NCBI GenBank assembly: GCA_963662405.2 | Contig: CAXXKT010000001.1 | Span: forward strand, 1,920,001-1,984,000 | Origin: Syntrophales bacterium | Lineage (GTDB): Bacteria > Desulfobacterota > Syntrophia > Syntrophales > UBA2210 | DNA: 64,000 nucleotides | Direction: 5' to 3' | Shown here: one piece after another, positions 21,808 through 47,689 of the stretch | How positions within the stretch are numbered: the first letter of the stretch is position 1 | Layout: each line of letters starts with the position of its first letter | Notes under the pieces: model-generated | What the model was told of the DNA's origin: nothing | Database searches by the model: none | What the model saw: the letters and a program-made list of their open reading frames with translations, nothing else | Position numbers and translations under genes: made by a program

Positions 21808-22094
21808 AGGAAGAATCGCGCAGCGAAAAGTATTTCTCGGATACTCCTGCTGCGATCCTCCCACTGTTCACTTATCCTCACAATCGAGTGCGCCGAGAGA
21901 TTACCGATTATTTATTGAAGTCGACATTCTGGGGGAAAGTCTCTGTGTAGCAGATTTCTTTCGGTAATGCGCAGGAATGATCAAAGAAAAAAGGAAACGT
22001 GCTGTTTATTGGTGTCACCTACAACTCCTCAAAATCTTTTCAGGAGAAAATCGATGATTACCGTTTGAAAGTCTCCCCTAATATCTCTTGACAA
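21808..22094 (+). repeat. Intergenic repeat family B, copy 1
   Basis: Closely similar to 27170-27460, including a long identical core tattgaagtcgac...gtcacctac. Confidence 0.9.
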
Positions 22095-22188
22095 GGTGCC
22101 ATAATGGGGTTACTAGTCAAGCCATTCTATTGATTAGCTTTTTGTTAAGAATCACACAGGTACTCTTTTGTTACCGTTGGTGAGTATA

Positions 22189-23386: not shown

Positions 23387-23485
23387 ATCATTAACACTTA
23401 AAGCATTTTTTCGGGGTCTTGTATTGCAATTTTGCAGAGTTTCTTTTTTATAAAAAAAGTACGTATACATTAGTTACGGGGCAAT

Positions 23486-24367
23486 ATGGAAATACCAATA
23501 TTATTACAATTAATCTTTGCTGCTTTGTTAGGAACAGCGGGGTCTGTGATAGCTCAAAAATATATTGAAACCCATGCACCCCTAATAATTACTTTATGTA
23601 TAATTGGGATGGTTATCATAGGGGGTCATGGTATTTATCGTATTTACTCGAAAGATATTTTTAAAGTAACTTCCATTATCCAAGTGAGGCTCAAATGGCC
23701 TGGGCCTTTGGTGTTCTGTTACCCATCTGCATCAGGGAAGAATCTTTCTCCCATTAGCGTAGCCCTCTTCGTAGAAGTAGTTAATAACAAGGATGTTATC
23801 TCACGTATCTCCAGCTATGAGTGTAGAGCGTTGTTGGAATATGACGAAGGGGGAAATACTGTTGTTAACCATGCACCAAATGGAGGGATAAAACTTGAAT
23901 ACAAACCGGCAGGGAAAACTGTGACGAAGTGGAGGAATTTATATGGTATGGGATTTGTGGACAACCAAGTATATTATATAACTGATCATGACTGGAGAAA
24001 ATGCAAGCGCGTTGATTTTAGAAACAATGGTTTTGATAGGCTAGCCAAGGACACTCAATTAAATCCCGGCGAATCTTTAAAAGGGTGGATGTTTTTTGAA
24101 TTGGAACATGATTTAAGGGGTCAATTGCCTGAAATTAAAAAAGTGGAATTGACATTTACTAATTCAGTCGGAGAGTCACAGTCATTGAAAATTAAAATCA
24201 AACAAAACGTAAAGGATGACAACGACATGGTTAATTATATAAGTTCAGGTGAATGGATTCTTCTTGAAGGGTACCATGACCTTACAAAAGAAAAATATAC
24301 AATGACACCGATGGTTGACTTGCGTAGAATTTTAAAAACAGGAAAATCTATAATCGTAAACCCTTGA
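23486..24367 (+). CDS. Hypothetical protein with 2 N-terminal TM helices and a beta-rich domain
   Basis: AT-rich 293-aa ORF with two hydrophobic N-terminal segments. Confidence 0.75.
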   Translation: MEIPILLQLIFAALLGTAGSVIAQKYIETHAPLIITLCIIGMVIIGGHGIYRIYSKDIFKVTSIIQVRLKWPGPLVFCYPSASGKNLSPISVALFVEVVNNKDVISRISSYECRALLEYDEGGNTVVNHAPNGGIKLEYKPAGKTVTKWRNLYGMGFVDNQVYYITDHDWRKCKRVDFRNNGFDRLAKDTQLNPGESLKGWMFFELEHDLRGQLPEIKKVELTFTNSVGESQSLKIKIKQNVKDDNDMVNYISSGEWILLEGYHDLTKEKYTMTPMVDLRRILKTGKSIIVNP

Positions 24368-24440
24368 GCAGACATTAAAGCGGGATGTATAACAAATTCC
24401 CCTTACTATGGCATCAATCCGATAGGGGGGTACTGAATAT

Positions 24441-24714
24441 TGCTGATTACGAAATGAAATATACAACAACTCGATGCCGATTGGTTCCCTTGCTTTCAGG
24501 AAGGAGCAGATAATCTACATGAACCTAGAATGTGCAGCCCGAGTTGTGCATCTTTCAACCCGCATTCGATAAGGTTGGCTGACGAATTGTGGTGCTGACT
24601 TGTATTTGTAGTCAATAAATGTGGGAAATGGATTCGCGGCTTGGCTTTCAATCCGTACTGTTCAGGCAGGATAAAGGAAAATGCCAGAGTGTCGGTTATT
24701 GACGCCACCTACAA
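24441..24714 (+). repeat. Intergenic repeat family A, copy 1 (starts with att core tgctgattacgaa)
   Basis: 24493-24714 appears identical to 31988-32209; the preceding ~50 bp are diverged but alignable. Confidence 0.92.
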
Positions 24715-24755: not shown

Positions 24756-26987
24756 TTATAATCCAGTCTTTTCGAATGTAAACCCTTTTTCCCTGAACAG
24801 TTTTATGCAGGCATCCACCACATCTGCATCGTAAAGAATCCCCCGGTTGTCCTCGATCTCTTTCAGGCCCGCGTCGATACCCAGGGCGGCACGATAGGGA
24901 CGGTGGGAGGCCATGGCTTCGACTACGTCACAAACGGCCAGAATCCGGGCTTCCATGAGAATCTCATCACCTTTGAGATTTCTTGGATAGCCCGAGCCGT
25001 CCATCCGCTCATGGTGCTGGTAGACAATCTCCGCCAGCGGCCATGAGGATTCCACACCCTTCAGGATGTCGTAGCCTTTCTGGGCATGTTCCTTGATCAG
25101 GGAAAACTCGGTCTCCGTCAGCTTTCCTGGTTTGGACAATATCTCTGCGGGAACGGATAGTTTTCCGAGATCATGAATGGAACCGACTATATAGATACCT
25201 TCAATCATGTTTTGGGGAAGCTTCATCTCTGTGGCGATAGCACGGGCAAGGATCGCAACGCGGAGCTGGTGATTGGCAGTATAGGGGTCTCTGGCTTCAA
25301 CCGTGGATACTACGACCTGAATAGTAGCGTTGACGGCATGCCTGAGAAGCTCGAGGGTATTGACGAGGTCCTTCTCCGCCTGTTTGCGAACAGAGATGTC
25401 AAAAATGATGGAATGAAGGAGATCCTTGTTATTGACTTTGATTTTGCTGCTGAACACACCCACATCTCGAACTGAGCCGTCGGCCCGCCTGTGGCGAAAC
25501 TCGAAATGCACTTGTTTATTGCTTCTGGCCTCCTCCATCTCCTTTTTGATCTCTTCAGGCGAAAGGGTGTTGATCTCTTGAATCTTCATCTGCGTGAGTT
25601 GTGCACGCGACCATCCATAAAATTTCACCGCTGCCCTGTTGACATCAAGGATATCCCCAGTATCCGGATCTAAGATCATCTTAACTGCTGCATGGTCTTC
25701 AAATACTTTTCTGAAAAGCAATTCGCTTTCCCTTAAAGCCTCCTCCGCCCGCTTGCGCTCGGTGATATCCACGATACTGGTAATGAGGTAAAGGGGGATT
25801 CCTTGCGCATTACGCTGTAGCGTGGCGCTGACATCTGCCCAGACGGTATCGCCGTTTTTGTGGAGGTATCGCTTTTCAAATCGACAATCGGTCTGCTCAC
25901 CGGCTACGAGGGAACGGATATATTCCTGGCTTTCCGCTACGTCGTCCGGATGGGTGATGTGCTCGAAATTGAATTGTTGGAGTTTCTCGATACTATAACC
26001 CAGCATGTCGGCAAAGGCCCTGTTCACCTGCAGGAGACTTCCATCCGGCTTCGTCAGAGACTTGCCGATAGTGGTGCGTTCGAAAATGACACGAAACCGT
26101 TCTTCGCTTTCCTGAAATTCAATCTCTGCCTGCTTGCGGTCGGTAATATCGCGAAAAATACCCAGGAGAAAATCTTTATCGGATAATCGGACTTTTGCCG
26201 CCCGGATTTCAACCGGAACCACTGTGCCTCTTTTCGAAAGGAGTTGCTCTTCTAGCGTAATACCGGGATCTCCCTCCATGTGTTGTTTAAAGGTTCGAGA
26301 AATTTTTCCAATGATTGTTTCGGGAGGATGGAGAATTGCCTGATCCTTTCCGATAAGTTCTTGCTTGGTCCGCTCTACCATTCGGCATAAGCTCTGGTTG
26401 CAGTCTACCAGTCTGCAGGTTTCAATGTCAGCCAACGCCATACCGTCTTGAGCGTTATCAAACAGGGTTCGGTAACGCATTTCGGACTCATGCAGTACAT
26501 CCTCCTCATGTTTCCGTTCGGTAATATCACGAAGATTCATTACGAACCCTGCCACTAGCGGATCATCCAAAAGATTACTGCCGACACCTTCCAGGATGCG
26601 CACGGTGCCGTTTTGGTGCTTCACATGGAAACTGTTAGGGATGAGGTTCTCTTTGACGAACAATGCCCTGCCGAAATCCGTAACGGCCCTTGGCTTATCG
26701 TCAGGCACAATCAGATCTAAAACCCGCGTTCCGATCAACTCGCCCGGCTCATAGCCGAGAAAATGCTCAACGGAGGGGCTCACATATGAGATGAATCCCC
26801 GCTTATCCAAGACAACGATGATACCGGATGAGTTCCGGATGATCGCCTGGTAATACTCCGCATTTTCCCGTACCGTTGTTGAGACCTTCTTGCGTTCTGG
26901 CTTAGATTGCTTCGGTTTCTTGATTTTCCGTTTCGAGGCGGATATTTTTTTGATCGGTTCTTGATTTATTCTGGTTGAATTTCGCAC
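24756..26987 (-). CDS. Multi-PAS (x4) HD-GYP phosphodiesterase
   Basis: Repeated DITERK PAC ends; RDPYTANHQ, HDLGK, HHERMDGSGYP. GTG start after GAGGGG is my reassignment. Confidence 0.9.
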   Translation of the reverse strand: MRNSTRINQEPIKKISASKRKIKKPKQSKPERKKVSTTVRENAEYYQAIIRNSSGIIVVLDKRGFISYVSPSVEHFLGYEPGELIGTRVLDLIVPDDKPRAVTDFGRALFVKENLIPNSFHVKHQNGTVRILEGVGSNLLDDPLVAGFVMNLRDITERKHEEDVLHESEMRYRTLFDNAQDGMALADIETCRLVDCNQSLCRMVERTKQELIGKDQAILHPPETIIGKISRTFKQHMEGDPGITLEEQLLSKRGTVVPVEIRAAKVRLSDKDFLLGIFRDITDRKQAEIEFQESEERFRVIFERTTIGKSLTKPDGSLLQVNRAFADMLGYSIEKLQQFNFEHITHPDDVAESQEYIRSLVAGEQTDCRFEKRYLHKNGDTVWADVSATLQRNAQGIPLYLITSIVDITERKRAEEALRESELLFRKVFEDHAAVKMILDPDTGDILDVNRAAVKFYGWSRAQLTQMKIQEINTLSPEEIKKEMEEARSNKQVHFEFRHRRADGSVRDVGVFSSKIKVNNKDLLHSIIFDISVRKQAEKDLVNTLELLRHAVNATIQVVVSTVEARDPYTANHQLRVAILARAIATEMKLPQNMIEGIYIVGSIHDLGKLSVPAEILSKPGKLTETEFSLIKEHAQKGYDILKGVESSWPLAEIVYQHHERMDGSGYPRNLKGDEILMEARILAVCDVVEAMASHRPYRAALGIDAGLKEIEDNRGILYDADVVDACIKLFREKGFTFEKTGL

Positions 26988-27169
26988 ATTACCCCTCGCG
27001 TTGTAGCAAAAGGGATGATCCGAAAACAAAAATAGGCAAGCTGATATGAAAAACATTTGTGAAATCTACATGATAACTGTTGAAATGTCAACATGGGATA
27101 TCGTCCATCAAACGCTGCTTACCGTTTAAAAGAATGTATTTTCATCAACGCTGACGTCTTACTGATTGC

Positions 27170-27603
27170 AGGAAGAATCGCGCAGCAAAAGTACTTCTCG
27201 AACACTCCTACGGCGATTCTCCCACTCTTCACCTACTTATCCTCACCATCGAGTGCGCCGAGAGGTTACCGATTATTTATTGAAGTCGACATTCTGGGGG
27301 AAAGTCTCTGTGTAGCAGATTTCTTTCGGTAATGCGCAGGAATGATCAAAGAAAAAAGGAAACGTGCTGTTTATTGGTGTCACCTACTACTGCTCAGAAT
27401 AATTTCAGGAGAAAATCGAGCATTATCATTTGAAAGTCTTAACACAAAATTCCTTGACAATACATTGTCTTAGAGTTAACCAAGTTAGCAGATTTGATCT
27501 TTATGTTTTTATCTGCTTGTGAACGCTTGTACCCAAGAGGGGGGATTATGGTTCGGACATCAAAGCTCTGTTTCTCAAAATGAGGAATAGGGCTTTTCTT
27601 TTT
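27170..27603 (+). repeat. Intergenic repeat family B, copy 2 (longest)
   Basis: Shares its 5' part with 21808-22094 and its 3' part with 18754-18967. Confidence 0.88.
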
Positions 27604-27732
27604 GTGAACTGTACGATCCAATTGGGGGTACTATACTGCATAATCTTAGATGTTTACGATATGATACGAGATACATATAAATATTGTTAGCGAGTTGTCG
27701 TGTCAGAGCAAACCGCATTGAGGTCTTAAAAA

Positions 27733-29409
27733 ATGGTGACAAGCCCGGAACCGGGAGGGGAAAAAACACGTCTCAGGATTGATCAAGCCAATGTGTTTTA
27801 TAACTACGCGATAGGATTCGAAGCTAATTCTGTTGACCTCGTTGGAACGGCAAGAAAGCTCCTGAAAAAAGGGATTGCGAAAGCTGTATTTTTCTCTGAC
27901 CGCAAAGTCCTATACACCGACGCGGACGGGAAAGTACAGATAGAGTTGATACAACCACAAGGTCGGCAATGGGACCACCGCTGGAAGGTCGAATTTGACT
28001 CAAAAATCCCCGCCGATGTCGATGCCGAACTTATCCTTGCATTCGAAGTGTCATTTGTTGAACACCGTATGGATGGCCCTAACGCTGGAAATATTCCGCC
28101 CTATCTCAGGGCCAGCCTTCCGCCGATTGTGTTGGAATCGGATGAGTTGCAGTTGCCTATTTTCGCGTCAATCAAACTGTTCGCTGACGGAATCGCCATC
28201 TTGAGTTTTCAGCTTGATGCTACTTGGGATGGTGTTGACGAGGAATACTTTGTATCGAACATTGTAAATATTTATCAGTGCTACTTCAACTCCATATGGG
28301 TCGATTCTCAAATTCAACGGCTTGATGCAGAAACGATACTGCCGGTAGCGTTCCAAGACGAGATATCCCTCGCTGGAAATCCGATTGGGGGCCGCAAAGT
28401 AAATAAATTATTGCGGAAGATGCGAATGGAAAGCCAAGCCTTAATAAACAAAGACCTCGGCGAGCAAGGGCGGCAGTTTGAAGTTGGCAATGAGCAATGG
28501 GTTCTACACCCGATTATTGGGACCAAGAACCAAGACTCGTGGGAATCAACACTAGATTTATGTCGACTTGAGTATTCTAATGCTTTGAGTGCGCTACTCG
28601 TGCATGGTCGAAAACAGCGGAAGATCCAGGCACAGTCCGCGTACTCGTGGCAAGGTCGACCTTCTGTTGCTCTTATGCGTTTCCGCAGGCAACCCACGAC
28701 TAAGGATGATCTCCTAAGCGGTTTCGCACCCTCATTGTCACGAATACTCATGCGGTCAGCAACCTTGGAAACGCCGCCAGATCTTCCTCCAGATCTACGA
28801 CTTTTTGGAGATTACTGCTTCCATGGAAATCGTTCTTTGCTCCTCTGGACATGGCTGCTTCCGCATGGGGCGCTAGTCAACGCTTGGGAGGAGTCGGAAT
28901 CGCGTTCCGCTCTTATGGAACACCAAGCGCGTTCCGAGCACATTGAATACCACAACATGCGGATCGTCCGCGCATGCGAAATGGCCCAATCTCCACTATC
29001 TGATAACCACCTGAGAGAAGCCTATGAAACCCTAGCCTCGCTCCACGATGTGATTCACCATAGCAGCCAGGCGGGGGAGATTACAAATGCGCTGACGTAT
29101 CTCTTAGAAGAGAGCGGTACGACGAAGCTGGTGGCTCCTGCGAAGGAAGCAGCACGCTGGCACCTTGACGAGTTGCGATACAGGTCTGATAAACGCCGAA
29201 CCCGCGTGGATTATTGGCTCTCCTTCGTTTTTGGGCTAGTCGGAACCACAGGGTTGGCAGATTTTGCCATTCGGCCCTTTCTGGTCAACGCTTGGCCTGG
29301 TCTCAGTCGTGAAGCGACCCCGCTTGTCGCGTTAGGAATCGCTGGCTTAATCGTCTCTTTGATAGCTCTCTCCATATGGTTCCTTAACAGGGGAGAATCG
29401 GACGACTAG
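27733..29409 (+). CDS. Hypothetical protein with C-terminal 2-TM hairpin (integron cassette 1)
   Basis: 558-aa ORF, GAGG RBS, two C-terminal hydrophobic helices; flanked by GTTAGCG (27686) and an attC. Confidence 0.8.
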   Translation: MVTSPEPGGEKTRLRIDQANVFYNYAIGFEANSVDLVGTARKLLKKGIAKAVFFSDRKVLYTDADGKVQIELIQPQGRQWDHRWKVEFDSKIPADVDAELILAFEVSFVEHRMDGPNAGNIPPYLRASLPPIVLESDELQLPIFASIKLFADGIAILSFQLDATWDGVDEEYFVSNIVNIYQCYFNSIWVDSQIQRLDAETILPVAFQDEISLAGNPIGGRKVNKLLRKMRMESQALINKDLGEQGRQFEVGNEQWVLHPIIGTKNQDSWESTLDLCRLEYSNALSALLVHGRKQRKIQAQSAYSWQGRPSVALMRFRRQPTTKDDLLSGFAPSLSRILMRSATLETPPDLPPDLRLFGDYCFHGNRSLLLWTWLLPHGALVNAWEESESRSALMEHQARSEHIEYHNMRIVRACEMAQSPLSDNHLREAYETLASLHDVIHHSSQAGEITNALTYLLEESGTTKLVAPAKEAARWHLDELRYRSDKRRTRVDYWLSFVFGLVGTTGLADFAIRPFLVNAWPGLSREATPLVALGIAGLIVSLIALSIWFLNRGESDD

Positions 29410-29448
29410 CCTGTGGCTGATCAGGAGCTCTGATTAAAGGCTACGATT

Positions 29449-29519
29449 CGCTAACATGTCACTTGAGGGGGATGTGAAAAACGCTGGCGCCTTTCCCCGG
29501 CCTCAGTTCATCGTTACCG
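29449..29519 (+). other. attC recombination site
   Basis: CGCTAAC...TGAGG...CCTCA...GTTACCG imperfect palindrome; CGCTAAC is complementary to GTTAGCG at 27686-27692. Confidence 0.75.
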
Positions 29520-29533
29520 CCGTTGAGTCACAC

Positions 29534-30463
29534 ATGAACATCGATTTGATTGAAAATTATTTTCTACAGAAATACCCTGGCGATGGCCGACGTAAGGCGA
29601 TACGTGAAGAGCTTACAATTTGTTGCATTGATTTTGTAAAGTCTGGATTGGCTGATTCGAATTTCATCAATGAACTGTGTTCCGGTTCGGAAAACAAATT
29701 TTGGTCCCGTCTGTCGGAGGCATTATTATCAGCACGCCTAAAAAACGTAGGACTAATTCCCGAACCATCGCAAGGTGGTGGCCCTGATTTTTATGTAATT
29801 GATAATGGTCTAAAGGTCTGGATCGAAGTTATTTGTCCTGAACCAACAGGTTTACCAACCGAATGGACAGAACCAGAAACGGGTAAAGCGATAAGCTTTC
29901 CGTATGAGCAAATTCTTCTGCGTTAGACAAGCGCCATAAAGGAGAAGGCAGAAAAGTTACTTGGTAGCATGGATGGAGAAGGTAGAGGCTATATTGAAAA
30001 AGGAATTGTCTCTATTGACGACGCATATGTAATCGCTGTTAATGGCCGCAAGCTTCGTAGTGGCAATCCTTTCCCTGAACTTTATGGTATAAGCCAGTTT
30101 CCCTTTGCAGTTGAAGCGGTTTTTGCTGTCGGCCCATATCAGATAAAAATAGATCGCGATACGCTTAAACAAACAGGTGATGGACATCAGCACAGACCGT
30201 TAATAGCAAAACCTAAAGGAATGCCTGTCCCTGCTTACACTTTTCTTGATGAGAGATTTCAGCCAATCAGTGCCATTTGGGCTGTGGATATAGATGGCAC
30301 GTCTGCGATTGGAAACTCAGAGCCAATGGTTGTGGTTCATAATCCAAATGCAGTTAATTCAATATCAACTGGCTTTTTGCCGGCCCATGATGAGTATGTG
30401 GCTACTCCTATCAAAACGGATGAATATGAACTGAAAAGACTTGATGGTAACTTACTTGACTGA
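29534..30463 (+). pseudogene. PD-(D/E)xK-like nuclease-fold gene interrupted by an in-frame TAG (cassette 2)
   Basis: GPDFYV...VWIEVICP; TAG at 29924-29926, and the frame continues into the 29969-30463 ORF. Confidence 0.72.
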
Positions 30464-30504
30464 CGCACAAAAAGCGTGCGCGCCCCACAGCAGAAACGTT
30501 AAGA
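30445..30504 (+). other. attC recombination site (degenerate left arm)
   Basis: TGGTAAC...CGCAC/GTGCG...GTTAAGA; shares gcgcgccccacagcag with the attC at 36637. Confidence 0.65.
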
Positions 30505-30583
30505 TGCTTGTCTGTTCGGCTGCAGCGGACACATCGCTTGAGCCATCGGGCAGCCTGAGACGGTGTGCTAAAGGAATAAAGGC

Positions 30584-31786
30584 ATGAAAAAATATCACGT
30601 CGCATTGTCGTTCGCTGGTGAAGATCGCAATTATGTTGATAACGTCGCAAGAAGATTGCAGGACTGCGGTGTCAAGGTCTTTTATGACAAGTTCGAGGAA
30701 ACCAATTTGTGGGGGAAGGACCTCTACACATACCTGTCAGATGTGTATCAGAATCAGGCGTTTTTCACGGTCATGTTTATCTCTGAGGACTACAAACGGA
30801 AGTTGTGGACAAATCACGAGCGGACAAATGCCCAGGCCCGAGCCTTCTCAGAGAACCGCGAGTACATCCTGCCGGCATTCTTCGATACGAGCGTTGAAGT
30901 TCCGGGAGTACTGAAAACGACTGGATACGTGGACCTCTCAACGCTACCCCCTGAGGAATTCGCAGACAAGATTATCGACAAACTTGAGAAATCAAACGTC
31001 CTACTACTCACGGAGGTGCATTACTCATATTCCGATGTCGCTCGTGCAGACGTAGATTTTCCGATCCGGGACGGAGACGAAGTCTCAGAGATTATCACTG
31101 CCCTTCGATCAAATAACTGGTACACACAGAACCCAGCGATAGAGAAAATCTTCAAGCTTGATTGGAAGAAGCGGACCTCGGATGAGGCATTTGTCCTTGG
31201 ACGGAATATCTATCAATGCGCGGACGGAGGCGAGCGCCGGGCCGAGGCAATCATGAATGACCTACGGCGCGAGTTTGCGAAGTTCCCTGACGAATGGGCC
31301 ACACATATCCTGAATGGCATGTTCTACGAGGCATACTTCAACCACGAGGGGAATTTCAGGGGATCGAAGCTAAAAAGCAAGTTTCTCTCGCACTTATTCG
31401 CTATCGAGACTGTGGCAAAATTCGAAAAGACCATCACGTACATCCAGTACGTGCTCGATCCGTACCGAGGCAGCCTTGGCGTCCTACCGAATAAGTCTCC
31501 CGAGGTGCTGCGGATTAGAGTCAAAATCGAGGAAAAGGACCCACCGGTGGTCACGAGCATAAAGGCTCAAGGGAAGGAGCAACTGGTAACCAGCTCTGAA
31601 GATTTAGACGATCCCGGCTGGCGGTTCTCCTACCGTGGATTTACGTTGGATGGATTCCCCGAGCAGCTCATGAAGTTTTGGAATATCCCAGAGGACCACT
31701 TTGAGATTGATTACGACAAGGATCTTCCAGGCATAACCAAAGTCCACTTGCCCAAGGGGACGACGTTGGGACAACTGAAAGTGTGA
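30584..31786 (+). CDS. TIR domain protein with C-terminal helical domain (cassette 3)
   Basis: YHVALSFAGEDR, VFYDKFE, LWGKDL, FISEDY, WTNHE, YILP. Confidence 0.9.
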   Translation: MKKYHVALSFAGEDRNYVDNVARRLQDCGVKVFYDKFEETNLWGKDLYTYLSDVYQNQAFFTVMFISEDYKRKLWTNHERTNAQARAFSENREYILPAFFDTSVEVPGVLKTTGYVDLSTLPPEEFADKIIDKLEKSNVLLLTEVHYSYSDVARADVDFPIRDGDEVSEIITALRSNNWYTQNPAIEKIFKLDWKKRTSDEAFVLGRNIYQCADGGERRAEAIMNDLRREFAKFPDEWATHILNGMFYEAYFNHEGNFRGSKLKSKFLSHLFAIETVAKFEKTITYIQYVLDPYRGSLGVLPNKSPEVLRIRVKIEEKDPPVVTSIKAQGKEQLVTSSEDLDDPGWRFSYRGFTLDGFPEQLMKFWNIPEDHFEIDYDKDLPGITKVHLPKGTTLGQLKV

Positions 31787-31815
31787 AGCGCTTTTCGGGA
31801 TTATCAGGGGGTGCG

Positions 31816-31941
31816 GCCGAACCTGTAGCTGCAGCAGACAGCCAGGGCCGTGGCATTTCAGACAATACGGAGTAGCTTGAAATTAAACGCATTATCCAAG
31901 TTCAGTGGAGGCCCTGGCTGCTGCTGAGCATGGCGTTACTG
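31816..31941 (+). other. attC recombination site (long)
   Basis: GCCGAAC..GCTGCAGCAGACAGCCAGGGCC...GGCCCTGGCTGCTGCTGAGC..GTTACTG; GCCGAAC is complementary to GTTCGGC at 30514-30520. Confidence 0.85.
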
Positions 31942-32209
31942 ATTACGAAAAGAAATGAGATTATCTCGATCCCAATTGATTCTAACACTTTCAGGAAGGA
32001 GCAGATAATCTACATGAACCTAGAATGTGCAGCCCGAGTTGTGCATCTTTCAACCCGCATTCGATAAGGTTGGCTGACGAATTGTGGTGCTGACTTGTAT
32101 TTGTAGTCAATAAATGTGGGAAATGGATTCGCGGCTTGGCTTTCAATCCGTACTGTTCAGGCAGGATAAAGGAAAATGCCAGAGTGTCGGTTATTGACGC
32201 CACCTACAA
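31939..32209 (+). repeat. Intergenic repeat family A, copy 2 (starts with ctgattacgaa)
   Basis: 222-bp block matching 24493-24714. Confidence 0.92.
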
Positions 32210-32600
32210 AGGCTCAGAACAACTCCGGAGAAAAATCGGTTATTACTGTTTGAACTTGCCCCCTGTAGTTGATAATCTTTCTCCCGGAATAATTTCAGGC
32301 AAACATCCACTGCATCCGCATCGTAAATGATCCCCCGGTTATCCTCGATCTCTTTCAGGGCCGCATCAATACCCAGAGCGGCACGATAGGGACGGTGGGA
32401 GGCCATGGCTTCGACTACGTCGCAAACGGTCAGGATGCGGGCCCCCATGACAATCTCATCCCCCCTCAGGTTTCTCGGATAGCCCGAACCGTCCATCCGC
32501 TCATGGTGTTGGTAGACAATATCTGCCAGAGGCCAGGAAAATTCGATGTCCTTTAGTATGTCATAGCCTGCCTGGACGTGATTTTTGATCAGGTCGAAAT
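32191..32600 (-). pseudogene. 3' remnant of an HD-GYP gene
   Basis: FDLIKNHVQAGYDILKDIEFSWPLADIVYQHHERMDGSGYP...; no HD motif or start; begins directly after the EAL gene stop, out of frame. Confidence 0.85.
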
Positions 32601-35327
32601 TTACCTTTGTTCTGCGGGAACATGTGTGCGCAGCAGATCGGCAAATTGTTCGGGCACAACGGGTTTACTGAAGTAGAACCCCTGCATTTCATCACAGGAG
32701 CGTTCCTGCAGAAAGTCCATTTGCTCCTGAGTTTCCACACCTTCGGCCACAACGGTAAGCCTGAGAGTCTTGCCCATGGCAATGATCGCCTCGGCGATCG
32801 CTTTGTCCCCAGAATTGTCAGGAATGTTACGAATAAAGGATCGATCCACTTTGAGTGTGTCAACTGGGAAGTGTTTGAGCTGGGAGAGAGAAGAGTAGCC
32901 GGTACCGAAATCGTCGATGGCAAGCCTCACACCCAAGTCCTTGATCTTCGAGAGCACCTTGATCATGCGCTTGGGGTTATGCATCACCATACTTTCGGTG
33001 ATTTCAAGCTCCAGCAGATTTGGCTCCATCCCGGATTCGTCCAGCGCTGCTTTGATATCTTCGAGCAGACCGCCATCCATGAGCTGACGGAGTGATAGAT
33101 TTACGGCCATACAGACAGGGGGAAGGCCCTGGTTTTGCCAGGCGACATTCTGGGCACAGGCGGTTTTCATGACCCATCTGCCGATGGGCACTATCAGCCC
33201 TGTCTCTTCGGCTACCGGGATAAGTTGCATGGGAGTCACTGAACCAAGCGATGGGCTCTGCCAGCGCAGCAGGGCTTCCACCCCGGTGATCGCACCGGTC
33301 TTAAAATCAAGCTTGGCCTGATAGTGCAAAGAGAGTTCGTTTCGCTGCAATGCCTCCCGCAGGTTAGTCTCGATCGAGAGGCGTTCGATGGATTGCGTTT
33401 TGATGCCCTTGGAATAAAACTGGTAGTTGTTTTTTCCTTCCTCCTTGGCAAAATACATGGCTATATCGGCATTTTTCATCAAGGTCTGTTCGTCCATGCC
33501 ATCTTTGGGATAGATGCTGATGCCGATACTTGCTGTTACACGGCATTCCTCACCCATGATTGTCATCGGCTTCATGGCGGTAGAAAGGACATTCTTGGCC
33601 ACGGTGGCAATCTTGCTCAGATCACCCACCTCCTCAATCAGTATGACGAATTCATCTCCTCCCAGACGGGCGATGACGTCGACCGCCCGCAGAGCCTGCC
33701 TCAATTGAGTTGCCATTTCCTGTAGCAGCAGGTCGCCGGCTTCGTGCCCCAGTGTGTCGTTGATAATCTTGAAGCGATCCAAGTCGATGAAAAATACAGC
33801 GAGTTCTCGCTTATAACGCTGCGCTGCCTGAATTGCATGGTTCAACAACTGGCTGAACATCAAACGGTTGGGGAGGTCGGTCAGGACATCATGTGTGGCG
33901 AGATACTGAATTTTATCTTCGGCACGTTTGCGCTCGGTGATATCGCGAACAATAGCCTGAATGTACTGTTTACCGGCTATTCTGAAGGCATTCAGGCTGA
34001 CCTCTGCATCAAACAAGGTCCCATCGTAACGACGGGGCGTCCATTCGAAAAACTGCGGCTGACCTTCGACTGCCGCATTCATTCTTTCCCGAGCTTCCTC
34101 CACGGATTTTTTTCCATCAGGCTGAACTTCCGGAAAGAACGGGTCAGGAGGGTGCCCGATGATCTGCTCCCTGGTACACCCGAACATTTCCAATGTCTTT
34201 TTATTGCAGTCAATAAAGATATTCTGATCCATCAGGAAAATAGCGTCACTGGCAGACTCGAAGAGGGTCCGGAATTTGGTTTCGCTTTCCCGCAGAGCCT
34301 CCTCCGCCTCTTTGCGCTCGGTGATGTCACGGTCGATTCCTCGGTAACCGATAAATGCCCCCACCTCATCAAAAACCGGTTCACCACTGGTTTCTAATAC
34401 TACCGGCCTTCCATCCTTATGCAGGTTAATGTTCACCAGTCCCGAGAACGCTTCGTGCGTAGCGATATAACCGCCGAATATACCTGCAACCTCGCTGATC
34501 CCTTCCGGGGGCATTAAATCGAAGGGTGTCTTCCCGATAACCTCTTCAGGTTTGTACCCAAGGATATCCCATACCTTCGGATTGGAATAGGTATATATGC
34601 CTTCGTGATCCACTACCCACATCCAGTCGCTGGACTTTTCGACTAAGTTCCGATACTTCACTTCGCTTGTACACAATGCCTCCTCCGCCCGTCTGCGCTT
34701 GGCAATTTCGCTTTGGAGCTGCTCATTTGTGTTCCGTAGATCTGCTGTGCGTTGTTCAACCCGATCTTCCATGCTTTTCCTGTCCAGCCCCATCTCGCCT
34801 ATGAGCCGGGCCAGGCGAGAAAAGAAATCCATCATCGTTCTCACCTGGTTCTCGGAAAAGATGGGAACCCTGCTCAACGCTGCCAGGTAGTCAGTTTTGC
34901 CAAACCCAAATTCTTCCGCCTGTCGGATAAAGTATTTTTTGTCCGGCGGCTCAAAGAAAAACTGGCCGGTAAAAAAGTTGGCGACGTGTTCGTCGCCGAG
35001 CATGATAGGTACGGCGGCATCAACCAGACCATTCTTGCACTTGTAGACGTTATAGCCCTCTCCTTTTTTCAATTGACCAGCCAGGATGGTGTCGCTTTCC
35101 CGACAGCGACACGCCGTCGTGATGTGGACTCGGTGAAAACGCGTACAAATATCTTGCCATCCGGTGGCGATCAGGATGTTACCTTCCAGGTCAAGGATGG
35201 CCGTCACTGCCCCGGTGATTGCGGTAAAGCTCTCGCATAACTCGCGTAATTCGCTGATATTTACCAGTTCAGCAAACATGAGGCTCTCCCTGTGGGCTTC
35301 CTTGTCCATAACCTGCTCCTTTAACAT
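32601..35327 (-). CDS. PocR sensor + PAS x2 + GGDEF + EAL protein
   Basis: PocR (WQDICTRFHR...CRESD...YKCKNGL); RAVD..RLGGDEF; VEALLRW; DDFGTGYSS. Confidence 0.93.
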   Translation of the reverse strand: MLKEQVMDKEAHRESLMFAELVNISELRELCESFTAITGAVTAILDLEGNILIATGWQDICTRFHRVHITTACRCRESDTILAGQLKKGEGYNVYKCKNGLVDAAVPIMLGDEHVANFFTGQFFFEPPDKKYFIRQAEEFGFGKTDYLAALSRVPIFSENQVRTMMDFFSRLARLIGEMGLDRKSMEDRVEQRTADLRNTNEQLQSEIAKRRRAEEALCTSEVKYRNLVEKSSDWMWVVDHEGIYTYSNPKVWDILGYKPEEVIGKTPFDLMPPEGISEVAGIFGGYIATHEAFSGLVNINLHKDGRPVVLETSGEPVFDEVGAFIGYRGIDRDITERKEAEEALRESETKFRTLFESASDAIFLMDQNIFIDCNKKTLEMFGCTREQIIGHPPDPFFPEVQPDGKKSVEEARERMNAAVEGQPQFFEWTPRRYDGTLFDAEVSLNAFRIAGKQYIQAIVRDITERKRAEDKIQYLATHDVLTDLPNRLMFSQLLNHAIQAAQRYKRELAVFFIDLDRFKIINDTLGHEAGDLLLQEMATQLRQALRAVDVIARLGGDEFVILIEEVGDLSKIATVAKNVLSTAMKPMTIMGEECRVTASIGISIYPKDGMDEQTLMKNADIAMYFAKEEGKNNYQFYSKGIKTQSIERLSIETNLREALQRNELSLHYQAKLDFKTGAITGVEALLRWQSPSLGSVTPMQLIPVAEETGLIVPIGRWVMKTACAQNVAWQNQGLPPVCMAVNLSLRQLMDGGLLEDIKAALDESGMEPNLLELEITESMVMHNPKRMIKVLSKIKDLGVRLAIDDFGTGYSSLSQLKHFPVDTLKVDRSFIRNIPDNSGDKAIAEAIIAMGKTLRLTVVAEGVETQEQMDFLQERSCDEMQGFYFSKPVVPEQFADLLRTHVPAEQR

Positions 35328-35687
35328 AAATTTCTTTTAATCTCGGATACTCATCGCCAGTCGCAGACCATCCTCCGATTCCGGTACGGCGATCAAATGG
35401 ATGTGGTTAGGTTAGGCATAAGGCAATATGCCCATACTTCAACACCGCAACGGGAAGACCATTCAGACAACAGGTTTATGTATTCCTGGTAATCTCCATC
35501 GTTAAAGAAGGTTTCCTCCACGTTGGGTTATATGATGTGGAAATCCTGGGACCACTATTCGTGCTATCCTTGTCATAATATGGAACACTATAGCTGAAGG
35601 TATGCATCTTACTTCAGTTCATGAAAAAAGAAAAGTGATTAATATCGTTCGAAATAAAGTATTAACTTAAAAACTGCCAGGCGCTCT

Positions 35688-35803
35688 CTTTCAGGAAGGA
35701 GCAGATAATCTACATGAACCTAGAATGTGCAGCCCGAGTTGTGCATCTTTCAACCCGCATTCAATAAGGTTGACCGACGAATTGTGGTGATTACTTGTAT
35801 TTG
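35688..35803 (+). repeat. Intergenic repeat family A, copy 3 (partial)
   Basis: First ~116 bp of the repeat A block, with a few mismatches. Confidence 0.88.
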
Positions 35804-36019
35804 AAAGTGTAAACCCCATATTGATTTCCGTCTTATCGAGTACGAGGAAGAATGTTTCAACTTGCTTGAAGTTCAATGGTTATAAAGAAGAATTGCCATG
35901 TTTAGGTTTTATCAGGATCCAGCCAAACATTGTTGGCCTTAAAAGATTGAATGAAACCATAACTTTTTTCTCCTCACTCACCCTTGATCTTTGTACGTCA
36001 ATGGCGCATAATAAGATAT

Positions 36020-36337
36020 ATGAAATTCATTGAAACTCCAATATTCACGAAGGAAGTCCTTGAACTAATGGAGGACGATGAATACAAGGCATTACAAGTT
36101 GCCTTACTGCTGAGGCCTGAACAAGGAGCCATTATTCCCAAATCTGGAGGTCTCCGCAAAGTTCGCTGGGCAATAAAGGGAACAGGGAAACGCGGTGGTC
36201 TCAGGATAATCTATTATTGGGACAAGAAAACAGAGTCTTTCTACATGCTTTATGTTTATCAAAAAAACAAACAAGATGACCTAACGCCAGATCAGCTCCG
36301 GATCTTAAGTCGATTAGTAGAGGAGGAGCTAAAATGA
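36020..36337 (+). CDS. higB: RelE/HigB family toxin (cassette 4)
   Basis: MKFIETPIFTK...GGLRKVRW...GKRGGLRIIYY...YQKNKQDDL; own promoter TTGATC-N17-CATAAT. Confidence 0.9.
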   Translation: MKFIETPIFTKEVLELMEDDEYKALQVALLLRPEQGAIIPKSGGLRKVRWAIKGTGKRGGLRIIYYWDKKTESFYMLYVYQKNKQDDLTPDQLRILSRLVEEELK

Positions 36338-36624
36338 AAGAACAAGACTTTAATAACCTACTCAAAAGCATTAAGCAGGCTGGAAAAATCCGTCGCGGAG
36401 AGATGAAAGCCAGTCGAGTTCATGAGTTTGTTCCCGCTGATATTAAAGCAATCCGGAACCAACTTCACAAGTCTCAGTCTGAATTTGCCATGATGATTGG
36501 AGTAAGTGTATCAACCCTCCAAAATTGGGAACAGGGCCGCCGTACTCCTGAAGGTCCAGCGAGAGCACTTCTCAAAATAGCTGCGGCAAACCCAAAAGTA
36601 GTGGAAGAAGCCCTTTCCGCATGA
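36334..36624 (+). CDS. higA: HigA-like XRE-HTH antitoxin
   Basis: SQSEFAMMIGVSVSTLQNWEQGRRTPEGPARALL; ATGA overlap with the toxin. Confidence 0.9.
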   Translation: MKEQDFNNLLKSIKQAGKIRRGEMKASRVHEFVPADIKAIRNQLHKSQSEFAMMIGVSVSTLQNWEQGRRTPEGPARALLKIAAANPKVVEEALSA

Positions 36625-36636
36625 ACGAAAGATATG

Positions 36637-36695
36637 GGCCAACAATCTGCTGTGAGACTCGCAGAAACCGCGCGCCCCACAGCAGCACATTGGAA
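36637..36695 (+). other. attC site (59 bp; right core reads ATT instead of GTT)
   Basis: GGCCAAC AAT CTGCTGTG...CACAGCAG CAC ATTGGAA; GGCCAAC is complementary to GTTGGCC at 35932-35938. Confidence 0.8.
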
Positions 36696-36711
36696 GTCAG
36701 AAACCTGGAAG

Positions 36712-37014
36712 ATGGGTATACAAAATAACCTAAAGTCAGTCCTTATCCGCGAGGGGTTCACGCAGGCAGAACTTTCCCGGGCCTCGGCTGTGTCAACCGG
36801 AACCACCAATCGCGTTCTGAACCGGCAAAGTTCAGTAGCCTCGATTACTATGTCCAAGATTGTTATTGCTTTCAACATGTCATCTTACAATAAGTACAGC
36901 ATCAGGGGCGTCTTCCCCGCGCGCAGGAAAGAAATCTCCCGCGTCACTCAATCGCCCGATCGCGTAATGCCCGGAGTTTTTGCTCCCCACCCCGTCCACT
37001 GTCCGGACCCATAG
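36712..37014 (+). CDS. XRE-type HTH protein (possibly degenerate)
   Basis: NNLKSVLIREGFTQAELSRASAVSTGTTNRV. Confidence 0.55.
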   Translation: MGIQNNLKSVLIREGFTQAELSRASAVSTGTTNRVLNRQSSVASITMSKIVIAFNMSSYNKYSIRGVFPARRKEISRVTQSPDRVMPGVFAPHPVHCPDP

Positions 37015-37313: not shown

Positions 37314-37617
37314 CTTGCTTCCCTCCGTTCTTCCCTCTTGTCCTCTTTTTCCTTGCCAGCTCGGGGCGGGTGTTCAGTCCTTCGAGGTGACCCAGGATTT
37401 CGCCCATGATGAATTTCTTTCGCCACTCCGCTATGAGCTCAGTGTCCGACATCCATATACCTCCTCCCCCCCGGGACTTTCAGGCTGGAAACCCTCTGTC
37501 TCTTGTCCACGCAAGGATCGTGTCGGCGGAGAGTTTGCAGTGCTCCGTTATCGCCTTCATGCCTATCAGTTCCACGCTACCATCTCCGTGATCCGGGTTT
37601 TTCCCCTTGGGGTTCAT
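37303..37617 (-). pseudogene. AlpA/excisionase-like HTH gene with in-frame TGA at 37480-37482
   Basis: LIGMKAI...W...GFPA*KSRGGGGIWMSDTELIAEWRK, paralogous to the upstream gene. Confidence 0.65.
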
Positions 37618-37937
37618 TTCTTTTCGCTCGCGTTTGTCATGTCCTTGGCCGGCTTCTTTCCCTGATCCTTCTTCCTGTTGCTGACTTTGCGCGCCGGCCG
37701 TGTCATGATCCGGTCGGTTATCATCTCGGCTGCCCCTTTCGGGACAATGCCTTTCAGGACGTATGAGATATACCACTGATCCACAGCGTCGGAGTCTGAC
37801 AGGAGCGTCCCGCCGGGCTTTCCCGTTGATGATACGGCCGGGAACCCGTACTCTTTGATCCACTGTCGGATCTTGTCTTCCCCCACCTCGCCCTTGAAAT
37901 GATCCAGGATTGCCTTCATGCCTATCAATTTTGCCAT
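37614..37937 (-). CDS. AlpA/excisionase-like HTH protein
   Basis: LIGMKAILDHF...IRQWIKEYGFPA...SDSDAVDQW. Confidence 0.7.
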   Translation of the reverse strand: MAKLIGMKAILDHFKGEVGEDKIRQWIKEYGFPAVSSTGKPGGTLLSDSDAVDQWYISYVLKGIVPKGAAEMITDRIMTRPARKVSNRKKDQGKKPAKDMTNASEKK

Positions 37938-37939
37938 GC

Positions 37940-39850
37940 TTACCACCTCCGTGATTTAGGCTTTTTCTCTTGCGGTTCTTTCCGTGGCGCCGCTGGTACG
38001 GACGCCTGTTCTTTCTGTTGCCTCAGATAGCTTGCCAGCATCTTGAGCGAGGGCAACCATTCGCTGTCGGCGCATGCCGCCGCGATCACTTCACAGTCGA
38101 GCAGGTGGTTGTCCTTCCGGATCTGTTTCCAGTAGGTCTTGCCTCTCCGGTCCCGCCGGAACTCTTCGGCCAGGACCTGGCGCGCGTAGTCGAGACCGGT
38201 GTCCGTGTTGAGCAGGAATCGCTGTGTCTCGCCTTCTTCCCGTTCCATGCGCCAGTGCAGCAGGGCCTTGTACTGGTCGGTGTCGAGGAGTCGCAGCTCC
38301 AGACCGCCGGGAATTGGCTTGTTCGATCGGGGCAGCTTGTCGATCTGCGACACCCTGATCCGGCCTATCTGCCTATGGGTCGCACCCTTGGTCCCGAAGA
38401 CCCTGCCCGGTTGCTGATCTCGTATCCACTGGTAGATCTCCTCGGTACGGGTCCAGATGTTCTCTTCCGTAACGCCGCCCCCGGTATCGATGCCGGCGCG
38501 CCAGATGCCCATCGTCTCGGTCGGTTTTCCCTCGATAGGATATTGCGTGTTGAAGACGAGGTTCTCCACGTCGTCGAATGTCGTCAGGTAGCCGTACTGG
38601 ACCAGCCATGATGTCAGGTCGTCGGCCCAGGCGCGGACGACGAACCAGAACCCGCTTTTCTGAACGTCGATACCCGCGGTCAGGGCGACCGCGTCTTTAG
38701 GGACAATGCCGGCGGCAAGTTCGGTCCTGCCCTCGAGGAGGGCGCTTTCCTTCTTCGGGACCACCGTCTCCCGCCAGACCTCGGCCTTGTGCTGGGTGAT
38801 GTAGACCATCATCTTCGACGGGTCCTCCATCCCACGCATATAGGCGGCGACGCAAGAGGACAGGGAGACAAAGGGACTGTACCAGGACGGGAGATGGAAC
38901 CCGATGACCGGGGCGCGCTCCACCGGGCTGTCCGGGATCCAGCCGTAAAACGAATCGGGGTTCCCGAGCCCGTTCAGGACGGCCTTGTTGCGCAGATGAT
39001 CATCCCACAGCATCCCGCAGGATTCGCACTGGTAGTGCGCCAGGCGCTTGCGGACGATCTCCCGGGGATCGTTGCAGGTCTTCGGCCAGTTGATCTGTCC
39101 GAAGTGCATCACCTGGGGGGCCCTGCAGACGGGGCAGACCGCGTAGTAACGCATCAGTTCGTCTGCCTCCCTTTCGATCATGGGGCCGATGTAGCCGCTC
39201 TCGTCCGTCGGGGTCGACAGGTCGATGGTTTTTTTGGTGAAGGGGTAGGCGTTCTGCCGCTGGTCGGTGAGTGCGATGGGATCGGCTTCCTTGCCGGTGA
39301 AGTCGGGATACTTGTCCACCTCGTCCCGGATCATGTAGCGGACCGATTCGGAGGACATCTCGGCGGCGCTGGTCGCCCAGGCCATCATGAAGTCCATGCC
39401 GTTCGTGAAATTGACATGCAGGGTCGTCGTGTCGGAAACGCCGGGTCCCAGGAGCTCGGCTATCCGGGACGTGGATCTGAACATGGGGAGAATCCGCCGG
39501 CGGGCGATCCGCTTTGTCACCTTCTCGTCGGGCATGATGTACATGCAGGGGCCGGGATCCTGCTCGATCCACTGGCAGAGGGCGTTGAAGGCGACCTGTG
39601 TCTTGCCCGTCTGGGGCGCGAACATGAGGATGATCCGCCTGACATGGGGCTGACTGATCGCGTTCATGGGCCCGACCAGGTAGGGCGTGGTCGTGTTCTG
39701 CCAGAGTCCGGTCATAGGACCGTTCGTGACGATGCGGTACCGCTCGGCCCACTCGGATACGGCCAGGCGTTCCCGGAGACGAAAGACGCGCCTCTCTCCC
39801 GGGGTGAAGGTGAGTGAGTCTTGGCTTTTTAGATCAGGAGCCGTGTTCAT
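37940..39850 (-). CDS. terL: Terminase large subunit, lambda GpA family
   Basis: SEWAE, TPYL, AP-QTGKT, DEVDKY, STPT, AGIDVQ, GIDTGG, NHLLDCEV. Confidence 0.95.
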   Translation of the reverse strand: MNTAPDLKSQDSLTFTPGERRVFRLRERLAVSEWAERYRIVTNGPMTGLWQNTTTPYLVGPMNAISQPHVRRIILMFAPQTGKTQVAFNALCQWIEQDPGPCMYIMPDEKVTKRIARRRILPMFRSTSRIAELLGPGVSDTTTLHVNFTNGMDFMMAWATSAAEMSSESVRYMIRDEVDKYPDFTGKEADPIALTDQRQNAYPFTKKTIDLSTPTDESGYIGPMIEREADELMRYYAVCPVCRAPQVMHFGQINWPKTCNDPREIVRKRLAHYQCESCGMLWDDHLRNKAVLNGLGNPDSFYGWIPDSPVERAPVIGFHLPSWYSPFVSLSSCVAAYMRGMEDPSKMMVYITQHKAEVWRETVVPKKESALLEGRTELAAGIVPKDAVALTAGIDVQKSGFWFVVRAWADDLTSWLVQYGYLTTFDDVENLVFNTQYPIEGKPTETMGIWRAGIDTGGGVTEENIWTRTEEIYQWIRDQQPGRVFGTKGATHRQIGRIRVSQIDKLPRSNKPIPGGLELRLLDTDQYKALLHWRMEREEGETQRFLLNTDTGLDYARQVLAEEFRRDRRGKTYWKQIRKDNHLLDCEVIAAACADSEWLPSLKMLASYLRQQKEQASVPAAPRKEPQEKKPKSRRW

Positions 39851-40734
39851 TGTTCGTCCTCCGTCTCTTCGTCTGTTTCGTCTTCCATAGCCTCGTCATT
39901 TCGTTCTGGGGGCGGCAGGATCACCCGGAAGGTCCGCTCCTCGCTGTAGCGGGCCAGGAACGATTCGAAACGGCCGAGAAGCCATTCGATCAGATCGGAT
40001 ATCGTGTCGGCATTGCCGGCGGCGCGGTTCACGATCTCGGATGCCTCGGCCCGCGCAAAGGTCTCAAGGTCGTTCCGGAAGACGGCGGCGCGTTTCGCCA
40101 GTTCTCCCTCGAACAGGTCCTTCGGCACGTAGGCGCCGGTGAACATCTCCGCCTTCATCGTCCAGTGCCGCGCCTGGGCCTTGGTCTTTTCGATCTCCGC
40201 GTGCAGTTTTTCCTGCTGCAGCTTCTCAAGTTTTTCTGAAGCGCTCCCGTCGGCCCGCTTCAGATAGGTCTGCGCATATCGGTCGACCTCATCGATCCGG
40301 TAGGTACCGTCGGCCTCGCATCGGAGTTTCCCCTCCTTTTTGTGCTTGTACACGGCGGACTTCCTGACCTTCCAGCCCTGATCCTGGAGGTACTCGGCCA
40401 CCGCCAGTGTGTTGGCAAGGGACGGAGCGCTCCCCAGGTATTTTTCGGACAGGACCACCAGTTGCTGTTCCAGGGCGGACTCCGCCTTCTGCCAGTCGTT
40501 GAGGCGGGCGGAGGTGGATTCCGCCTGGTAGTCCCGGATGCATTTCACAACGGCGTTGTGCAGGACCTTCAACGCGATCTGGTCCTGCCCGCCGGCAACC
40601 TCAAGCAGTTTTTTTACCTTCTCCTGATCCATCATTCCGTCCGAGATCGCCTGGCAGATCATCCAGGCGCGCTGCGCGTTACTCGCGCGCTTCCAGTCAT
40701 CAGCGACGATCTGATTCTCTTTTCCCTTTACCAT
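39847..40734 (-). CDS. Terminase small subunit-like (Nu1-type wHTH + coiled coil)
   Basis: Overlaps the terL start (ATGA); HTH then EKLHAEIEK...GAYVPKD. Confidence 0.65.
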   Translation of the reverse strand: MVKGKENQIVADDWKRASNAQRAWMICQAISDGMMDQEKVKKLLEVAGGQDQIALKVLHNAVVKCIRDYQAESTSARLNDWQKAESALEQQLVVLSEKYLGSAPSLANTLAVAEYLQDQGWKVRKSAVYKHKKEGKLRCEADGTYRIDEVDRYAQTYLKRADGSASEKLEKLQQEKLHAEIEKTKAQARHWTMKAEMFTGAYVPKDLFEGELAKRAAVFRNDLETFARAEASEIVNRAAGNADTISDLIEWLLGRFESFLARYSEERTFRVILPPPERNDEAMEDETDEETEDEQ

Positions 40735-41072
40735 TTACATGAGGCCCCTTTCGTGGTATCGGCACTCACGTGGATGGTAGCGCTTCGGCGCCCTGTGTCC
40801 CTGGCACAGGTTTACGGGAGCTCCCTACTCCCGGAATACCGTCCACCCTTCTTTTTTCCTTCAGTACAAACCGTCAATTATCTCTTTCGGATCTCACCTC
40901 CTCCCGATCAGGCTTCCCCTTTACCATTTACATAGGGGAATCGTTCGTGGTACAGAGACTCACGTGGACAGCAGTGCCGTAACGCCCTGTACTCTACCCC
41001 AGGTATTCCGGGAGTTTCCCAACAGCTCCCGGAATACCCTCCTTTCTTCCTTTTTCGCTTCAATACAAACCA
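40720..41072 (-). repeat. Diverged ~195-bp tandem duplication with conserved hairpins
   Basis: Shared blocks ctttaccatttacat, ttcgtggta, actcacgtgga, ctcccggaatacc, tacaaacc recur at offsets of ~195 bp. Confidence 0.75.
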
Positions 41073-47682: not shown

Positions 47683-47689
47683 TCCCTCT

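Follow-up and report, generated by a model that had tools for sequence, protein, structure and literature searches.

Clusters of attC sites that lack an integron integrase (CALINs) have been described by Cury et al. (2016, PMC4889954), and their mobilisation by a distant integrase has been discussed (PMC4889954; PMC9668308; PMC11389934). The origin of integrase-less arrays and the movement of cassettes between cells are treated as open questions (PMC4889954; PMC9892861). Anti-phage genes are known to be stored in the chromosomal cassette pool itself (bioRxiv 10.1101/2024.07.02.601686). Here we describe four gene cassettes carried by a prophage-like element of a Syntrophales bacterium (GCA_963662405.2; genome of 3.8 Mb on three contigs). 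The window analysed is the 64,000-nucleotide stretch C1:1920001-1984000; positions without a prefix refer to it, and other positions carry the prefix C1 or C2. We consider it probable that two integrase-less integron platforms, each an attI copy with cassettes, occupy the cargo half of this element, a prophage derivative without head and tail genes.

The locus resembles a CALIN in combining at least two attC sites, no intI nearby and an IntI elsewhere in the genome (PMC4889954): attC1 and attC3, the only two intact attC sites of the first array, lie 2.3 kb apart without a neighbouring intI, and the genome's TIGR02249 matches include no intI or intI remnant near them except the element's phage integrase. 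Nor is it a complete integron, in which intI adjoins attI, as the window encodes no IntI and the intact one lies 264 kb away. Unlike the CALINs described (PMC4889954), the array keeps an attI homologous to that of the host, at one of about ten such sites in a single genome, and is therefore predicted to be able to take cassettes in. The unit encoding HigBA, with its single attC and no integrase, recalls a single attC site lacking an integrase (SALIN) or an insertion at attG, but SALINs are defined by having no other att site nearby, whereas this unit follows an attI copy (bioRxiv 10.1101/2022.09.11.507474). In the Shewanella cryptic prophage M16-3, too, a cassette array without an integrase possesses its own attI (Qi et al., 2023, PMC9892861); as described there, however, that prophage has a complete integron as well, together with head/tail-related genes and a broken phage integrase, whereas the present element has no intI, no head/tail block and an open integrase frame, and is one of three size-matched elements. 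Defective-prophage "proto-hitchers" and satellites are a further likeness, being partly deleted phages that closely resemble a potential helper, with which a different repressor would permit co-residence (PMC11389934). In contrast to those described, the lost block is here replaced by attI platforms and signalling genes. Possession of both terminase subunits and a near-full helper length set the element apart from small satellites of the phage-inducible chromosomal island (PICI) and P4 types.

Published work thus already covers CALINs and their mobilisation by an IntI at a distance, attG insertions, and a CALIN led by an attI in a prophage (PMC4889954; PMC9668308; PMC11389934; PMC9892861; bioRxiv 10.1101/2022.09.11.507474). 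A literature search that extended to neither subscription journals nor bioRxiv supplements found no description of attI cassette platforms combined with size-matched, terminase-bearing, head/tail-less derivatives of a resident phage. The genome offers a directly testable case, with one intact IntI, about ten dispersed attI copies bearing different cassettes, several of them on phage-derived elements, and a candidate helper phage. The features of the platforms are as follows.

27411–27598, plus strand: multi-copy non-coding leader "X", with a conserved TTGACA box, about 130 nt and a terminator-like hairpin (27562–27596), ahead of the type A attI; found by profile search.
27625–27688, plus strand: attI copy of type A, crossover G/TT at 27686/27687; 48/64 nt identical to the attI of the intact host integron.
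27686–29512, plus strand: cassette 1, encoding a 558-aa protein (27733–29409) with two predicted C-terminal membrane helices, and an intact attC1; 7/7 core pair, cassette homologues.
29513–30497, plus strand: cassette 2, a 309-codon gene (29534–30463) broken by a TAG at 29924, with attC2 (30445–30504); 6/7 core pair, arm comparison.
30498–30513, plus strand: 16-nt remnant between the GTT of attC2 and that of cassette 3; unique in the genome.
30514–31934, plus strand: cassette 3, encoding a 400-aa TIR-domain protein (30584–31786; PF13676), with an intact attC3 (31816–31941); 96% identical copy in the metagenome locus L036.
31935–31952, plus strand: conserved half-site (GTTAMTGATTAC...AAAG) on the downstream side of the docking site, following the array's last attC; genome pattern search.
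35899–35934, plus strand: attI copy of type B, crossover G/TT at 35932/35933; 27–29/36 nt identical to four other orphan sites.
35932–36688, plus strand: cassette 4, a RelE/HigB-like toxin (36020–36337) and a helix-turn-helix (HTH) antitoxin (36334–36624), with ATT in attC4; domain matches, sibling remnant.
23439–24457, plus strand: possible decayed fifth platform, with an attI-like remnant, a 293-aa open reading frame (ORF; 23486–24367), an eroded attC-like hairpin and a half-site motif at 24439.

Comparison with the rest of the genome indicates that both arrays start at attI copies and not at chance sites. The host attI was inferred from its position between intI and the first cassette; the ungapped match of the type A copy to it ends at 27688, and over 36 nt the copy scores 31/36, third in the genome, the next unrelated site reaching 26/36. 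The type B subtype is common to its four orphan relatives, which carry different cassettes. The attI pattern ATAAAYAYYGTT occurs 17 times in the genome against none for the reversed pattern, and at nine of the 14 attI-like sites examined for core complementarity (16 being present) the first cassette ends with a 7/7 complementary attC core. Leader X, which includes a conserved GGATTATGGTCTGATCATC, has 64 profile matches in the genome and precedes many of the attI sites as well as signalling genes; its copies in the window lie at 18784–18966, 22046–22132 (partial) and 27411–27598. The leader occurs in 24/36 genomes of the same family versus 1/24 others, has no Rfam match and is possibly an attenuator or a small RNA. 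Downstream, the half-site has 13 matches in the genome versus one for the reversed pattern, at least seven of them after an attC-like arm recognised by eye or by model, and it follows the last attC of several orphan arrays, attC3 among them. The putative fifth platform is uncertain: its attI remnant agrees with the attI of the split host intI at 23/36 positions, which is background level, and its hairpin has a fold z of +0.17. Inside the type A attI copy, TTTACG-17-TATAAA (27653–27681) was noted by eye as a candidate cassette promoter, absent from the promoter scan.

The original prediction was that four palindromes have left cores complementary to a GTT core upstream of their own genes, as left by IntI-mediated insertion. 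All eight 7-mers lie where it placed them: GTTAGCG at 27686 with CGCTAAC at 29449, GTTACCG at 29513 with TGGTAAC at 30445, GTTCGGC at 30514 with GCCGAAC at 31816, and GTTGGCC at 35932 with GGCCAAC at 36637. Complementarity is 7/7 for cassettes 1, 3 and 4 and 6/7 for cassette 2. On C1, a 7/7 pair surrounds 46/3212 ORFs (1.4%) and a pair of at least 6/7 surrounds 291/3212 (9.1%), so that the three perfect pairs exceed chance, whereas the lone 6/7 pair is within background and probably a coincidence. Judged by their exact G/TT boundaries, the units are true IntI-type cassettes, of which cassettes 2 and 4 have meanwhile decayed or become locked in.

The four attC sites differ in their state of preservation, attC1 and attC3 being intact, whereas attC2 has an eroded left arm and attC4 an altered crossover. 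The bottom strand of attC1 (29449–29519) folds into an attC shape (z −1.66) with an R-box pairing probability of 0.97–0.99, and attC4 (36637–36695) has the best fold of the four (z −4.81); attC3 forms a long stem with bulges (z −2.82) with an R-box probability of only about 0.14. At attC2 the predicted folding fails: z is +0.36, the minimum-energy structure is not that of an attC, and the R-box probability is about 0.25. The right arm of attC2 is intact and of host type, but the left arm does not pair with it; the proposed left core TGGTAAC coincides with the last codons (D-G-N) of the cassette 2 gene, and close homologues of the protein extend a few residues beyond D-G-N. At attC4 the right core reads ATTGGAA, with ATT instead of GTT at the crossover; a sibling element retains the end of higA and the same attC, but with GTT (C1:2650806-2650956). 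A covariance model, R1, built from 18 attC sites outside the window and consequently small and insensitive, matched attC3 well (23 bits, E 0.0045), the only one of the four so supported, and attC1 weakly (12 bits, E 2.1, top strand, ranked below one unrelated match), and left attC2 and attC4 unmatched. Both of these have in common with host attC sites a loop of the form CGCAAAAA-CCGCGCG.

Two host integrons were found. The intact IntI (C1:2211885-2212937; 471 bits to TIGR02249) has a same-strand array and lies 264 kb from the element; a second intI (C1:30433-31643), split in two frames, has its own array. Each intI is co-directional with its array, and the intact one is separated from its attI by a 1.28-kb multi-copy insertion sequence (IS; C1:2211885-2214393 for the intI–attI region). 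No LexA was found in a search with PF01726, and SOS control of intI is accordingly not assumed. The first cassette at the orphan attI at C2:54199 has a counterpart of 100% identity (764 + 140 nt) within the split-intI array, and the first cassette at the orphan attI at C2:287957 has one of 100% identity over 140 nt within the intact array; these identities point to recent IntI action at a distance, of which they are the expected footprint. A cassette of about 145 bp without an ORF and with a 109-bp attC occurs six times in the intact array (including C1:2214391) and also at orphan sites (including C2:287957). In the sibling element at C1:236 kb the leader and attI of this element recur (77% over 530 nt, ending at GTT), followed by wholly different cassettes that encode a ThsB-like TIR protein, an HD-CE ATPase and an OLD-type ATPase. 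The suggestion that the island collects its cassettes from a host integron acting in trans thus finds support at two other orphan attI sites but not in the window's own cassettes, full copies of which are absent elsewhere in the genome; for these four, loading in trans by the host IntI, or by that of an earlier host, is inferred by analogy.

The element spans 38,850 bp from att to att, delimited by an 83-bp direct repeat whose copies are 95% identical. Its right half encodes a phage-type integrase, a CI repressor, a CII-like protein, a primase-helicase, two methyltransferases and both terminase subunits; the left half contains PAS/HD-GYP/GGDEF-EAL signalling genes, a nuclease, an IHF/HU-like protein and the cassettes. 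Among its 39 ORFs no portal, capsid or tail gene was recognised. The limits and backbone are:

15737–15819, no strand assigned: attL, a copy of the 3' part of tRNA-Thr(CGT); 83-bp direct repeat with 54504–54586, 95%.
37673, no strand assigned: junction at which this element, like two siblings, departs from the complete prophage, immediately ahead of the portal-capsid-tail block.
37940–39850, minus strand: terminase large subunit (TerL), open frame; PF05876/PF20454, with phrog_15 and phrog_57 for the terminase pair; 98% to the complete prophage.
39847–40734, minus strand: terminase small subunit (TerS), open frame; profile match; 95% to the complete prophage.
43806–46232, minus strand: primase-D5 helicase (replication); profile matches.
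51802–52491, plus strand: CI-type repressor with an S24 domain; domain match.
52644–53663, plus strand: phage-type tyrosine integrase, not IntI.
54504–54617, minus strand: attR (repeat at 54504–54586) overlapping an intact tRNA-Thr(CGT) at 54542–54617.

As originally proposed, the only recombinase in the window is an ordinary phage-type integrase, with 108 bits to TIGR02249 against a cut-off of 265 and a match to phrog_1 at E 4e-58; the element has no intI, and the intI search elsewhere returned the two host genes described above. The arm at 37612–50495 shows 92–95% identity with two further head/tail-less elements and with a complete prophage, in which portal, protease-capsid, decoration and tape-measure genes follow the terminase. 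The four related phage contigs examined likewise run on into head genes, and the only portal of that family in the genome is in the complete sister prophage. All three truncated elements leave it at one common junction, after which the next several hundred bases are 88–89% identical; they sit at tRNA-Thr, tRNA-Arg(CCT) and tRNA-Arg(TCT), with integrases 29–69% identical and divergent repressors. These relationships identify the element, as far as sequence can, as a head/tail-less derivative of a co-resident prophage. It has the gene set of a satellite or hitcher, with its own integrase, att sites, repressor and replication genes and no virion genes. Its TerL, TerS and primase frames are open, with ratios of nonsynonymous to synonymous substitution (dN/dS) of 0.09–0.20. 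The truncated elements measure 38,850, 39,947 and 41,703 bp from att to att versus 42,911 for the complete phage, or about 38.8, 38.7 and 39.2 kb versus 41.6 kb without multi-copy ISs, and their cargo is mostly unrelated. Lambda-type terminases pack a unit-length genome within a narrow size range, so the matched lengths are most simply read as those of a helper-packaged derivative, and the element may travel inside particles of the intact sister phage.

In the mechanism that we favour, the cassettes would have been loaded in trans, a step for which we consider the support good, either by the chromosomal IntI at its distance of 264 kb or by the IntI of an earlier host, through ordinary attC × attI recombination that would leave the newest cassette next to attI. 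With moderate confidence, the element would be, or would recently have been, helper-dependent, replicating and cutting its DNA with its own terminase; for shells it would depend on the complete sister prophage, and the cargo would take up the room left by the lost head-tail block. A broader version can be offered only tentatively: the three elements might form a family of helper-packaged, full-length derivatives in which the head-tail block was swapped for an attI-fitted cargo bay, the host IntI loading defence cassettes and the sister phage shells carrying them, which would amount to a virus-like cassette ferry with two helpers. If the element is indeed packaged, the chromosomal cassette pool would be linked to phage-borne transfer.

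Several results weigh against this reading. No full copy of any of the four cassettes was found elsewhere in the genome, and R1 supports only attC3 well. No cassette-excision joint was seen among the 15 joints listed of 37 in assembled contigs, which drop rare forms. An empty attI docking site was found neither in 339 genomes nor in viral contigs: 13/339 genomes matched with at most one mismatch, versus four control matches, and seven viral contigs matched exactly, but none of these 20 candidate loci had attI-type upstream DNA, a leader or an intI, and exact attI patterns had no match in viral contigs. A search of 338 further genomes of the class did not find the head/tail-less junction; the agreement in size comes from three elements that are related to one another; and the low dN/dS may be older than the deletion of the head-tail block or result from recombination with the complete prophage.

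A rival account, which we regard as unlikely, holds that ready-made attI sites and arrays were captured from integrons without their intI, that the three elements are immobile relics kept alike through prophage recombination, and that the cassettes are decaying. Damage to attC2, attC4 and the cassette 2 gene fits it, as do the deletion of HigBA in a sibling, the possible decayed fifth unit and the lack of relatives in those 338 genomes, and intI loss and rearrangement are among the listed origins of CALINs (PMC4889954). Against it, homology to the host attI stops after 64 bp with no DNA of the intI side, the sibling's equivalent leader and attI bear different cassettes, and orphan attI sites elsewhere hold cassettes 100% identical to integron ones; moreover, terminase and primase frames are open, and lengths matched, in all three elements. 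Insertion without a dedicated platform, at attG or secondary sites, would yield a SALIN or CALIN directly. Very many GWT sites are targets of cassette insertion by IntI (bioRxiv 10.1101/2022.09.11.507474), and cassette 3, whose core starts 16 nt past the GTT of attC2, resembles an off-site insertion of this kind; such an origin of the arrays is nevertheless improbable, as both begin at attI-homologous sites common to about ten other arrays in the genome, and the strong bias of ATAAAYAYYGTT over its reversed pattern (17 to 0) argues in the same direction. That the element's own tyrosine integrase moves the cassettes we find scarcely credible: although it is the only recombinase in the window and its att-core 11-mer CTGATTACGAA recurs just after attC3, the protein scores far under the IntI cut-off and matches phage integrases, and the 11-mer is one variant of the wider half-site consensus that follows arrays in other elements, so that its reading as a phage att core was dropped.

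The cassettes themselves were predicted to encode defence and toxin-antitoxin functions. Cassette 4 encodes a RelE/HigB–HTH pair, and a role in defence, suggested by domains only, is plausible: two candidate defence proteins are the TIR protein and the 558-aa membrane protein with its weak likeness to CorA. Boundaries at the same cores recur in other loci for cassette 3, among homologues of cassette 1 and partly among those of cassette 2. Seven loci hold homologues of cassette 1, four with a GTTAGC core upstream and an attC-like site downstream, one with a partial arrangement and two with neither; one of the four is the first cassette of a complete integron and one lies in a long Halomonas array, and at one of these four the DNA match begins at 27682. 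The predicted fold (pLDDT 87) has a long helix and two terminal hydrophobic helices. Identification as CorA was rejected (best Foldseek CorA E 6.5e-4, TMq 0.17, rmsd 15), as was assignment by the fold search VIA, whose best Z of 7.2 covered the C-terminal helices only, and no curated defence model matched.

The in-frame TAG of cassette 2 lies where 118 of the 120 homologues listed have one common sense residue. Among three loci with near-full-length homologues, one is followed by an attC-like hairpin, one follows a GTT core and one has no boundary. A PD-(D/E)xK-like motif was recognised by eye, and one homologue of three tried weakly matches PD-T7-5 (E 4e-7); a profile search matched no solved structure, and no viral homologue was found of cassette 2 or of the 293-aa ORF (23486–24367). 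Cassette 3 recurs in L036 from core to core, at 96.1% DNA identity over 30514–31937 and with other flanks, and the stretch 30514–31938 is also present in a contig from an independent run, X4. The N-terminal TIR domain of its protein is predicted to belong to the bacterial NADase type, and Glu79 does not vary among 19 sequences; the match to curated defence models spans this domain only, and the C-terminal 260 residues have no Atlas match and no convincing fold match beyond TIR. Only 3/18 loci with full-length TIR homologues have a 7/7 core, which indicates that the gene family is not confined to cassettes. DNA of the HigBA cassette was not found among 60 relatives, and cassette 4 recurs only as the sibling remnant.

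Outside this genome, two genomes of the same genus (L134 and L144) have leader and attI-like sites, with no R1 match after them in the stretches examined. A search with R1 of the complete prophage region and two related phage loci found no attC, a weak null given that R1 missed attC4 too. At gathering score Rfam recognises only the tRNA in the window, and 27100–37000 has no match up to E 1.

Among the siblings, the distal 4.3 kb of two are 98.8% identical (C1:232-236 kb and C1:2626-2631 kb); the first has an XhoI-family nuclease and an Eco57I-type methylase there, and the second additionally carries a Gabija-like GajA and a reverse-oriented DUF488 cassette. A fourth related element (C2:323086-355015; 31.9 kb, tRNA-Lys) has part of the backbone and no terminase match. 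An imperfect direct repeat upstream of terS (40721–40875 and 40914–41074), a candidate packaging or promoter region, occurs in two copies here and in one sibling, and as a single copy in the other sibling and in the complete phage. Next to attR, the 3' end of the integrase gene is duplicated (53542–53713 and 54349–54530) around a second toxin-antitoxin-like pair, Gp49/DUF891 and HTH (53747–54312). Within the cargo, the platforms alternate with PAS/HD-GYP and GGDEF-EAL genes (19150–21747, 24756–27056 and 32191–35327), with an HD-GYP 3' remnant at 32191–32593. A 315-aa protein with a weak SIR2-like match (22168–23115), a candidate defence gene for which no attC was found, follows the partial leader copy, and at 16540–17100 fragments that look by eye like umuD/umuC are fused to an IHF/HU-like ORF; C1:300-303 kb holds close copies. 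Over 29123–32015 and 35759–36730 the window shows zero differences from contigs of runs X1 and X2, from which it may itself derive. A second non-coding repeat (24440–24714, 31936–32225 and 35688–35803), with copies 95–100% identical here and on other elements, looks to have spread recently, in the manner of a miniature mobile element.

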